Part shown: positions 45,361 through 53,325 of the stretch, piece after piece
How the letters are laid out: each line of letters starts with the position of its first letter
Numbering within the stretch: the stretch's first letter is position 1
Assembly (NCBI GenBank): GCA_030390025.1
Contig: CM059432.1
Span: forward strand, 5,270,001 to 5,334,000
Length of the DNA: 64,000 nt
Origin: Squalus acanthias
Lineage: Eukaryota
Direction of reading: 5' to 3'
Made by a program: the position numbers and the translations under genes
Notes under the pieces: generated by a model
Seen by the model: only the letters and a program-made list of their open reading frames with translations
Told to the model about the DNA's origin: nothing
Databases searched by the model: none

Positions 45361-45502
45361 ATGGTATGTTGGCCTTTATTACAAGAGAATTTGAGTATAA
45401 GAGTAAAGACGTCTTACTGCAATTATATAGGGCCCTGGTGAGACCACACCTGGAGTATTGTGTACAGACTTGGTCTCCTTACCTAAGGAAGGATATACTC
45501 AC

Positions 45503-48500
45503 TGTGGTAACACAATACAGCGTCCTGTGACTCGAACTTTATTGCATCACTTCCTGTGATTAGTCCAGGATAAATACTGGACTGATCAGTTGGATCCTGG
45601 AGAGGCATAGAGTAAGACCTCTTTTGTATGTAGCACCTTTTTAGTTGATTAAAGCTTACTTTAAGTTCACCACGCGTAAGGCTCATTCTTACGACAATTT
45701 AATCAACTTTAGAAAACTTCGCACTCAAACTTTTTGGACGAACTCGGAACGAAGGATCCAGGGAATCATCCATCATGGAAAACATCCTTAAACCATCGCG
45801 TCTTGACTTGGACCCAAACACCCCAGCAGCCGGTAAGGGGTGGAAACACTGGTATCACACGTTTGACAATTTTCTTGAATATTGCAAGGCTGATGATGAC
45901 TCAAAGTTGCGGATACTCATTAACTGTATCACCCCGAATGTATTTCAGTATGTGGAGGAATGGGGCAGTTACGAGGAGGCAATTCGGACGCTTAAGAGAC
46001 TATATACTAAGACACCGAATGAGGTCTATGCCAGACATCTACTAGCTACAGCCCAACAAGGGCCGGAGGAATCCATTGATAAATTCCTCCAAGAGCTTCG
46101 CAGACTTAGTATGGACTGTAACTTTCAGGCGGCCTCAGCTGAGCTGTACCGTGAAGAAATGATCCGTGATGCTTTCATCTGCGGGCTTGCCTCCCCATTT
46201 ATACGCCAGCGTCTACTGGAAAGTAAGACACTTGAGCTTCAGAGAGCTTATGACATGGCTTGCTCTCTAGATCTGGCAAAAAGAAATGCAGACCTTTATA
46301 CAGTGCCCAGACCTCGGTCTGCTGCCTTAACTACAGTCAGGCAATTTAAGAGGCCACAGGTGAACTCTATTAGGGAGGACTTTATCCCTGACGATCAATC
46401 TGATGACTTCACTGATGAAGAGGATGATGACCCCACTGTGGCAGCCTCTTGGCAATCTAAGAAATGCTTCTTTTGTGGTGATGAGTTTCACCCTCGGAAA
46501 TTCTGCCCTGCTTGCAATGCGTTTTGCAGTCATTGCAACAAAAAGGGTCATTTTGCAAAGGTTTGCCTATCAAGAGCCTCTACGAGGGCTTATCAAGCTA
46601 AGTCCTACCGAACTGCCCCGGTAAGGGCCTATCAAGATGTTCCGGCTAAAATCTATCGTGCTTCCTCTCGGGTTTTCTCTCGAAGAAACACACCTAGAGT
46701 TTCAGCCACTCTTTGTGCAACAACACCAATTACAGCTGCTTGTCCTCAGAACCTATTCCATGCAGCTACAAAAGCATCAATTAATGGACATACTTTAGAT
46801 GCCTTAATTGACTCAGGTAGCACTGATAGTTTCATTAGGGAACAGATTGTTGCAGAGTTAAAGCTACATGTTTTCCCATCGGACCAGGCAATTGCGATGG
46901 CTCAGTCATCACTTAATACCAGAATTTCTGGCTTTTGTATGGTTGAAATAACACTTAATGGTCACAGGTATCCCTCCACCCGGCTTTCGGTGCTCAAGGA
47001 CTTATGTAGTGATCTTATCTTAGGGCTAGATTTTCAAAAGCAGCATAAGAAGCTCACCATTGAGTTCGGCGGATCCAAACCTGAACTCACTATTTCTAAT
47101 ATACGACCTCGATTACCGGTCTGTGCATTGTCAGCAGCTTCACTGGATGAACCCTCATTGTTTACCAGTATCCCTCCTCGATGCAAACCGATTATAACAA
47201 AGTCACGACGTTTCAGTCAGGAAGACCAGTCTTTTATTGCGGCTGAGATTTCTCGGCTTTTAGCAGAGGATATCATCGAGCCTTGTTCGTCGCCATGGCG
47301 CGCCCAGGTCGTTATTGTTAAGAACCCTCTACAACCTCACAAGAAACGGCTGTGCATTGACTATTCACAGACCATCAATCAATATACGGACTTGGACGCA
47401 TACCCATTGCCGCGCATCGATGATATGGTTAATAAACTGGCTGAGTACACGGTGTTCTCAACATATGATCTGAAAAGTGCCTATCATCAGGTACCCTTGA
47501 AGGTCTCAGACAAGCAGTATACGGCCTTTGAAGCCAATGGACGGCTGTATCAATTTTGTCGCCTCCCCTTTGGGGTCACTAATGGAGTGGCTGTCTTCCA
47601 GCGAGCAATGGATGACCTGGTCAAACAGGAAGACTTGAAGGATACGTTTCCTTATCTGGACAATATTACTGTCGCAGGTTGCAATCAGCGGAAACATGAC
47701 GCCAATCTCCAACGATTTTGGGATGCACTCCAGCACCGTAATTTGACATTAAATGCGGCTAAATCCATTGAGTCACAACCAACCATCAACATCCTTGGCT
47801 ATTGTGTGGGCAATGGCATCATTAAACCTGACCCTGAAAGGCTTCGCCCACTCCAAGAACTCCCGCCACCTAAGAATCTGGCCTCCTTGCGCCGGGCCCT
47901 CAGCCTGTTTGCATACTATGCTAAATGGATTCCTAACTTCTCGGACCGAATCCAACCTCTACTGAAGGCCAGCACATTCCCACTAGACACAGCGGCTGTT
48001 GCAGCCTTTAACCTCCTGAAAAAACAGTTGGAGAAAGCGGCTCTTCACTCCATCGATGAGAGTCTTCCTTTTGTTGTTGAGTGTGATGCCTCGGAGGTGG
48101 CGATCTCGGCCACTCTGAATCAGGAAGGTCATCCGGTGGCATTTTTGTCCAGGACTTTTCAAGGGGCTGAGCTACATTATCCTCCAGTCGAGAAAGAAGC
48201 TACAGCCATCATAGAGGCAGTACGGAAGTGGGGTCATTTCCTAGCTTGCCAGCACTTTACCTTAATCACGGACCAGCGATCGGTCGCCTTCATGCTCGAT
48301 AATCGAAAACGGACCAAAATTAAAAATAATAAAATCCAGCTTTGGCGGCTGGAATTGGCCTCTTTTGGTTACACCATCCACTATCGACCTGGCAAGGAGA
48401 ATATGGCTCCGGATACCCTCACACGAGCATTCTGCTCTGCCATGGCACCCTCTACGCTCGTAGACATCCATGATGGGTTGTGTCATCCGGGCGTTACTCG

Positions 48501-49941
48501 CATGCTACACTTCGTGCGGTCCCGAAATCTCCCATTCTCTACCGGGGATGTAAAGAAGATGTGCTCGGACTGCAGAGTCTGTGCGGAATTGAAACCTCAG
48601 TTTTTCCGCCCCTCGGGTGGTATACTCATACATGCGACCCAGCCAATGCAACGGCTTAGCATCGATTTTAAGGGGCCGTTGCCCTCTTCAACTCGCAACA
48701 CTTATCTATTGACCATGGTCGATGAGTATTCCCGTTTTCCGTTTGCCTTTCCCTGCCCCAATATGCTGACGACCACGGTTATCAGCTGCCTTGAGCAGGT
48801 ATTTGCTTTCTGTGGCATGGCATCCTATGTTCATTCGGATCGGGGCCCTTCTTTTATGTCAGGAGAACTCAAGGCCTATCTCTCGGAACGGGGTATTGCT
48901 GCCAGCAAAACGACGCCTTATCATCCGGTCGGAATGGGCAAGTCGAGCGTTTTAACGCTATCATCTGGAATGCGGTACGTCTGGCTTTGAGATCTCGGGG
49001 CCTACCTAACCAGCAATGGGAAGCAGTACTTCCAGACGCATTACACTCCACACGGTCCCTCCTTTCGACCGCCACAAATACGACGCCTCATGAACGGTTC
49101 TTCCGATTTCAGCGTCGCTCATCCTATGGGATATCTCTCCCGTCGTGGCTGACTGCACCGGGACCAGTGCTACTCCGAAGATATGTCCGGGCGTCTAAGA
49201 ATGACCCCCTGGTAGATGAGGTTGAGCTCACTGACGTCAACCCTACCTACGCCTATATTCGGTATCCTGACGGTCGGGAATCTACCGTGTCATTGCGGGA
49301 TCTGGCTCCCTGCCCGCCGAAACATAGAGGGACACCAGGGGATAAATTGTACCAGGCACATCTCTGGGCTCGCCAGGTGCCTCTCATCACGATCTGGATC
49401 TGACGCCGGCTGGTACCTCACTCCAGCGTGCCGACCTGGGGCAGACTGACTATGAGCCCGTCGGGGCTCGCACGCGCAGCCACGATCCACCCCGTACCGT
49501 ACGCTCGGAAACGGATCTGCCACAGCCCTGCCCGACACCCGTTCGGGCACCAGTACACAGTCAGGATCGTCCTGACCCCTCACAGAGCGGGCTGGATCAC
49601 TCGGACTCTGGTCCACGGCCCGCGGCGGGTAAACGGGCTAGGGGCCCTCTACCGCTACGAGAACCCAAACGGGTGCAGCTCTCCCTCGTCCAGCGGCTAC
49701 GAAATGGAGGGAGCATCCCGGCCTCCTAATCTTTTGGGGGGGGAGAATGTGGTAACACAATACAGCTTCCTGTGACTCGAACTTTATTGCATCACTTCCT
49801 GTGATTAGTCCAGGATAAAAACTGGACTGATCAGTTGGATCCTGGAGAGGCATAGAGTAAGACCTCTTTTGTATGTAGCACCTTTTTAGTTGATTAAAGC
49901 TTACTTTAAGTTCACCACGCGTAAGGCTCATTCTTACGACA
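45503..49941 (+). mobile_element. Full-length Ty3/Gypsy LTR retrotransposon
   Basis: 194-bp TG..CA LTRs (45503-45696, 49748-49941) with 2 mismatches; 5-bp TSD CTCAC/CTTAC; polypurine tract before 49748. Confidence 0.97.
45775..49403 (+). CDS. Gypsy gag-pol polyprotein, frameshifted near 48932
   Basis: Zinc knuckles CFFC..H..C and CSHC..GH..C; protease LIDSGS; RT YDLKSAYHQ, LPFG, YLDN; RNase H CDAS; integrase HHCC, IDFKG, HSDRG. Confidence 0.93.
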
Positions 49942-50280
49942 CTTACCATAGAGGGAGTGCAACGAAGGTTCACCAGACTGGTTCCTGGGATGGGGGGACT
50001 GTCCTATGAGGACAGATTGAGTAGACTAGGCCTATATTCTCTAGAGTCTAGAAGGATGAGAGGTGATCTCATTGAAACATACAAACTTCTTACAGAGCTT
50101 GACAGGGTAGATGCAGGGAGGATGTTTCCCCTGGCTGAGGAGTCTAGAACCAGCGATCACAGTCTCAGAATAAAGGGTTGGTCATTTAGGACTGAGATTA
50201 GAAGAAATTTCTTCACTCAGAGGGTGGTGAATCTTTGGAATTCTCCACCCCAGAGGGTTGTGGAGGCTCAGTTGCTGAGT

Positions 50281-53141: not shown

Positions 53142-53178
53142 GCAACAACACATCATCAGTAGGGTGAAACTAACCTGC

Positions 53179-53211
<33 letters not shown>

Positions 53212-53257
53212 ATTAGTGGGTGAACAATCCAACGCTGGGTGAATTCTGCTTCACAAC

Positions 53258-53289
<32 letters not shown>

Positions 53290-53325
53290 ACGACGTCGCG
53301 ATGAACGCTTGGCCGCCACAAGCCA
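53142..53325 (-). pseudogene. 28S rRNA fragment (domain V, peptidyl-transferase region)
   Basis: GGTCTAAACCCAGCTCACGTTCCC and GGAAGAGCCGACATCGAAGGATCAAAA are reverse complements of conserved LSU sequence; only ~184 bp, with substitutions. Confidence 0.93.

Follow-up and report, generated by a model that had tools for sequence, protein, structure and literature searches.

Mature tRNAs end in CCA at their 3′ side, and TGG is hence required in a primer site that they serve (PMC5006619). The Tf1 element of Schizosaccharomyces pombe primes reverse transcription with its own RNA: the initial 11 bases in its transcript anneal to the primer site, with RNase H cleaving between bases 11 and 12 (PMC7175516), the primer complex forms a three-duplex structure (PMC10085805), and a copied primer site is found at the 3′ end in about half of the Tf1 cDNAs (PMC11042837). 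In the accessible portions of the literature, self-priming among Gypsy elements is tied to the Tf1/sushi group (PMC6317226, PMC10085805, PMC7175516), whose members (e.g., Tf1/Tf2, Tj1, and Tosmo1-3) have a primer site right after the 5′ LTR that is complementary to an LTR segment, together with an 11-nt core, an intact RT-RNase H, and extra helices beside the duplex (PMC7175516, PMC4600332, PMC10085805). Self-priming has further been predicted, by the same sequence criterion that we apply here, for the plant Tcn1 and TAR elements (PMC6317226), and it has been speculated that the first LTR elements were self-priming (PMC3601003).

Here we describe a complete LTR retrotransposon at 45503-49941 of a 64,000-nt window (i.e., the whole stretch of DNA analysed) from Squalus acanthias (CM059432.1), which has in common with that group a primer site beside the 5′ LTR that is complementary to an LTR segment, the 11-nt core, and predicted extra helices (Table 1). 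It is a young Gypsy (Ty3/Gypsy) element of a widespread animal clade, and our analyses make it highly likely that this clade primes reverse transcription with its own RNA in the manner of Tf1, instead of with a tRNA. Self-priming is proven in Tf1, whereas for the clade we infer it from matched sequence changes and the lack of TGG in 25 families, which together support the tRNA-independent priming suggested in an earlier sequence-only reading of the locus. Since this type of mechanism is already known, the clade extends a known trick and does not represent a new one.

Table 1 Features of the Squalus acanthias element, with positions counted from the first base of the window
Feature	Position	Strand	Remark
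Left target-site duplication CTCAC	45498..45502	+	one mismatch vs right copy CTTAC
5′ LTR, 194 bp, TG...CA	45503..45696	+	
Predicted self-primer AGTTGATTAAA	45643..45653	+	putatively at or near transcript start
ATTAAA hexamer within LTR 11-mer AGTTGATTAAA	45648-45653		
Predicted short hairpin stacked directly 3′ of primer	45654..45666	+	computed fold
Predicted second hairpin in U5	45675..45693	+	computed fold, this element
Primer-binding position TTTAATCAACT, no TGG, complementary to LTR 11-mer	45698..45708	+	
gag-pol frame from ATG	45775..48990	+	out of frame near 48,930
Gag with two Cys/His knuckles	inside gag-pol frame 45775..48990	+	
Protease	about 46771-47034	+	Pfam
RT, YLDN motif	47341-47802	+	
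RNase H	47998-48366	+	
Integrase zinc finger and core	48454-48927	+	
Integrase C-terminal region, other frames in this copy	48930..49729	+	second break near 49,340
Polypurine tract GGGGGGGGAGAA	49736..49747	+	
3′ LTR, 194 bp	49748..49941	+	2 differences from 5′ LTR
Right target-site duplication CTTAC	49942..49946	+	

The domain order of the element is Gag-PR-RT-RH-IN, with Ty3 as its best solved relative, and sibling copies are flanked by exact 5-bp target-site duplications. A single open reading frame had been ascribed to the element from its sequence, which holds for the family, where a 1,323-aa frame is the commonest among 150 scored copies, but not for the window copy, which is frameshifted by single-base gaps near 48,930 and 49,340 relative to all 8 siblings compared. 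The absence of a chromodomain, noted in the same reading, was borne out: Pfam found none in the three frames of the window copy, neither a chromodomain nor a Tf2-type SH3 domain was found in 27 full-length homologs chosen from the 120 listed, the precomputed domains of those 120 homologs include no chromodomain, and the integrase C-terminal region of the window copy has no match to a Tf2-type SH3. The RT catalytic motif (about 47,680-47,700) reads YLDN in place of YxDD; of 103 aligned homologs, 79 have N at its last position. The family is nonetheless evidently mobile, and the papers listed for this motif concern BEL/Pao-type or nematode elements.

The 5′ LTR ends at 45696, and the primer-binding position therefore begins one base past it, separated by the single base A45697, with no TGG there. 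As had been claimed for this site, TTTAATCAACT is the exact reverse complement of AGTTGATTAAA over 11 nt, and pairing ends on both sides of this stretch. Could such a match arise by chance in an AT-rich LTR? The 11-mer is itself AT-rich and many places were open to the first inspection; against this, only 13 of 20,000 dinucleotide shuffles of the LTR reached a complement of at least 11 nt to the 20 bases after the LTR, none of the 4,010 other 20-mers of the element reached a 10-nt complement to the LTR, and, as described below, the pairing recurs with different sequences across the clade. Chance is thus so improbable as to be negligible, and we regard it as ruled out by the related loci, the second family in the same genome, and the covariation across 25 families.

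The 3.7-Gb Squalus acanthias genome contains many copies that are about 98% identical to the window element (1,525 candidates in our census, 40 of them scored), and both 11-mers were kept in all 30 sibling copies fetched. A sister variant (contigs of runs X1 and X4) has an extra A right before the LTR 11-mer, at window position 45642; with this base, the duplex with the primer site would gain a twelfth pair, which a second family of the clade in the same genome has too. This second family has 81% RT-RNase H identity to the first and a different LTR, and its pairing is 13 nt long (CAAGTTGATTAAA with TTTAATCAACTTG), being present in five of the six copies with a resolved LTR (seven fetched); the sixth, L141, has one mismatch. 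Three Gag searches with distant queries all returned this second family, so the genome contributed two sampled families of the clade. Some second-family copies occur on one strand with a spacing of about 4.3 kb (C4:938041 and 942336; C5:93135031 and 93139317), as expected of tandem elements that share one LTR; Tf1 tandems arise by an integrase-independent route (PMC11042837).

Among the homologs listed, polyproteins of about 1,200 aa were found in crustaceans (shrimp, woodlouse, and mantis shrimp), a nematode, a fluke, a sea anemone, and a snail, in addition to Squalus acanthias. The relatives sampled at the DNA level comprised 80 metagenome and 10 genome-bin loci, mostly fragments without a 5′ end; the latter are ten contigs in bacterial genome bins (L111-L120) that encode relatives and likely represent eukaryotic DNA. 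A complement of 11-19 nt in the same register was present in all 16 related loci with both LTRs resolved, with one mismatch at the LTR-proximal end in two of them (L044 and L073). In partial or circular contigs, a pair of 9-18 nt was found automatically in 17 of 25 (one, L103, is shared with the two-LTR set). Of the eight automatic misses, five had no intact gag start. L047 and L062 do pair, with the copy of the LTR that lies at the opposite end of the contig, and L032 shows no pairing in its 118 upstream bases although its gag start is intact. In L114, which was added to this set, reading by eye gave a 15-nt pairing. Upstream of gag, L066 (1-270) carries a duplication of the primer site and the adjacent LTR end.

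The sequence-only reading had proposed covariation between the primer position and the LTR 11-mer as a check, and such covariation is what we found. In a set of 25 families (one locus per family, chosen by eye, with near-duplicates and the mismatched copies L044, L073, and L141 excluded), 272 of 275 positions of the 11-nt core form Watson-Crick pairs and two further ones form G-U pairs; the families have 20 different 11-mers, and cross-family pairing averages 71%. The best of 20,000 permutations gave 225 pairs, a figure which is not to be read as a probability, since the LTR arm was taken as the stretch with the best complement, the position of the LTR end was deduced from a CA for 14 of the 25, and the families have ancestry in common. 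At the sequence level, the cleanest case, free of these arm-search, LTR-end, and kinship caveats, is the pair L072 and L080: the two share 98.7% identity in their internal part, and a change of one primer base (in both LTRs) is accompanied by the matching change of its primer-site partner. Unpaired changes occurred in single copies (L044, L073, and L141). No family of the 25 has a TGG primer site at offsets 0-5.

The register of the pairing is fixed. The primer site begins one base after the CA of the LTR. The last bases of the LTR arm are AAA, located 23-69 nt before the LTR terminus, and mostly GCC or ACC comes next. The second core base is G in 24 of 25 families and is preceded by a T-rich run, an initiator-like context (an initiator consensus is TCAKTY; PMC3601003). 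A splice-acceptor reading of this T-rich run and AG was rejected, because this AG is part of the duplex with the primer site, and in 6 of 25 families its A is a T. Predicted folds starting at the core contain several helices and give the duplex a probability of 0.74-0.97 in 23 of 25 families, another fold winning in the other two (L064 and L109), and a helix starting right after the primer is predicted in 14 of 25 families against 4.3 expected. These predicted side helices are mostly local loop hairpins, unlike the Tf1 "pretzel", in which, as published (PMC10085805), sequence adjacent to the primer site pairs with the LTR.

Mechanistically, transcription would begin at the AG of the LTR 11-mer (45643) or a few bases ahead of it, and the 5′ end of the RNA would fold back onto the primer site. 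The element's RNase H would then cut the 3′ end of the duplex (45653/45654), beside the stacked hairpin, and the freed 3′-OH would prime minus-strand strong-stop DNA, which would jump to the short R of the 3′ LTR. If the retained primer is copied during plus-strand synthesis, the primer site would be rewritten from the LTR; such rewriting would keep both sequences matched, and the covariation may thus be partly templated and not only selected. Pairing in the clade often reaches 13-19 nt, unlike the 11 nt of Tf1: it extends through positions 12-13 in 22 of 25 families and positions 14-16 in 14-18 families, and falls to chance level at position 17. This argues against a strict 11-nt primer at the cap end, as pairing beyond 11 nt would be superfluous with a single cap site at the 11-mer; variable transcript starts together with primer copying would explain the longer pairings.

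The same extended pairing also bears on a variant of self-priming, counted within our overall confidence in self-priming, in which the primer lies inside the RNA: the RNA would start far upstream in the LTR, and a cut would make no more than the primer's 3′ end or, in an alternative form, the copy of the 11-mer in the 3′ LTR would be used. In most families, the pairing continues beyond the 11-nt core for a further 2-8 nt upstream, which is in keeping with an internal primer, as are the fixed duplex end at the 3′ AAA and a TATA-like GATAAATA about 70 nt upstream of the LTR 11-mer, none being obvious at the usual distance. We nevertheless consider this variant unlikely, given that the highly amplified window family pairs over exactly 11 nt and that the second-position G after a T-rich run resembles an initiator.

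Another explanation holds that the duplex hides the 5′ poly(A) signal, or serves packaging, and that something else primes. The overlap between the LTR 11-mer and a poly(A)-like ATTAAA, pointed out in the sequence-only reading, is real in the window element; it is not a constant property, since only 14 of 25 families, the window family among them, have AATAAA or ATTAAA within the LTR arm, and we rejected it as a defining feature. The hexamers in these 14 families speak for signal hiding, which may be a second function of the duplex; as a replacement for self-priming it is quite improbable, because the other 11 families keep the pairing without a hexamer in the arm, the partner invariably occupies the exact primer position, and the 25 families show no other primer site.

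Priming by a host tRNA, a tRNA half, or another small RNA, with the LTR match as a by-product, is in our judgment very improbable. It has a precedent in Copia lineages, for which half-tRNA priming without TGG is described (PMC6317226). The tRNA search that had been recommended for this site returned a longest match of 7 nt, within a scope of 47 distinct tRNA genes from about six isotypes, and this narrow coverage leaves host RNAs some room. The 20 different primer sites, each matching its own LTR, weigh more heavily against a host primer, as they would need 20 different host RNAs. Self-priming remains our preferred reading for the clade.

We placed the clade in an RT-RNase H tree (85 rows, 408 columns) in which 14 fish, frog, fungal, and unnamed proteins stood in for Tf1/sushi-ichi; group labels were our own, based on Pfam domains, host names, and Gag similarity, and the tree contains no named Tf1, sushi-ichi, Mag, or Cigr-1. 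The lineage forms one clade (29 rows, SH-aLRT 100), sister to, and not inside, a set that we take to be Mag-like from Gag similarity (SH-aLRT 92, below the starred level), and the fish, frog, and fungal sushi-like elements form a separate clade (SH-aLRT 99). The same sister pair of lineage and Mag-like set was obtained in a 136-row FastTree without the sushi-like set. Joining the lineage with the sushi-like set was rejected (AU p=0.018), and placing it as sister to all chromodomain groups (chromoviruses) was not (AU p=0.254). The separate clades and the rejected joint grouping, together with the lack of a chromodomain or Tf2-type SH3, indicate that the lineage is not a Tf1/sushi member, in agreement with the earlier suspicion that the element falls outside that group; an independent origin of self-priming is not thereby proven. 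At five fetched loci of the 16 with a chromodomain in the same genome, no RT was found near the chromodomain. Tf2-type SH3 matches in this genome belong to endogenous-retrovirus-like elements, which were used only as an outgroup. Searches among viral contigs gave no relatives, nor did a generic RT motif match there, and the ESM Atlas gave generic RT clusters only.

The nearest tree neighbours, the Mag-like Gypsy elements, share with the clade short LTRs, the absence of a chromodomain, and a weak Gag similarity (21-28%). A tRNA-type TGG primer site is the general rule in the Mag lineage. The Mag-like elements of the same genome indeed have such sites (four of five loci), unlike the clade, and their self-complement is at most 6 nt; their RT-RNase H identity to the clade is 27-30% only. 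Existing names that may apply to the clade are Cigr-1 and MolGy (molluscs and annelids), candidates by listing and host only: Cigr-1 is placed under Mag and has been recorded in Biomphalaria glabrata (PMC6238403), which is the host of two of our homologs. The Cigr-1/MolGy papers make no mention of primer sites in the text searched. The clade also resembles the TAR lineage of plant Ty1/copia (Houba, Osr-1), where self-priming outside Tf1/sushi was predicted from the same kind of sequence evidence (PMC6317226), with the difference that TAR elements belong to another superfamily and are hosted by another kingdom.

No report of self-priming in a non-chromodomain animal Gypsy clade appeared in the literature searched, from which Repbase and subscription papers were out of reach. 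Repbase entries may already record self-priming for single families. A second self-priming lineage, lacking a chromodomain, would mean that the trait was invented repeatedly or that it is ancient and was lost on many occasions, and the clade makes the idea of self-priming ancestry testable on a tree. A broader proposal, possible though in our view somewhat short of probable, is that a large animal-wide clade near Mag gained self-priming independently of Tf1/sushi, converged on the 11-nt core found there, and in many families masks its 5′ poly(A) signal by means of the priming duplex. If true, tRNA-free priming would be a common, repeatedly gained strategy in animal genomes, beyond the silencing exerted by host tRNA fragments, as such elements would presumably escape tRNA fragments aimed at the primer site. 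On the practical side, these abundant elements will be overlooked or ranked lower by annotation tools for which a tRNA site is mandatory.

Several further observations were made at the locus and in its host genome. The element is inserted in an abundant older repeat (45400-45502 and 49942-50280), the halves of which are continuous in many contigs. The endogenous-retrovirus-like elements of the same genome (L121-L130) are about 9 kb long; a long spacer separates their RNase H from the integrase, and they contain additional long frames. Downstream in the window, positions 53172-53325 on the minus strand hold a fragment of eukaryotic large-subunit rRNA (Rfam RF02543, 206 bits).
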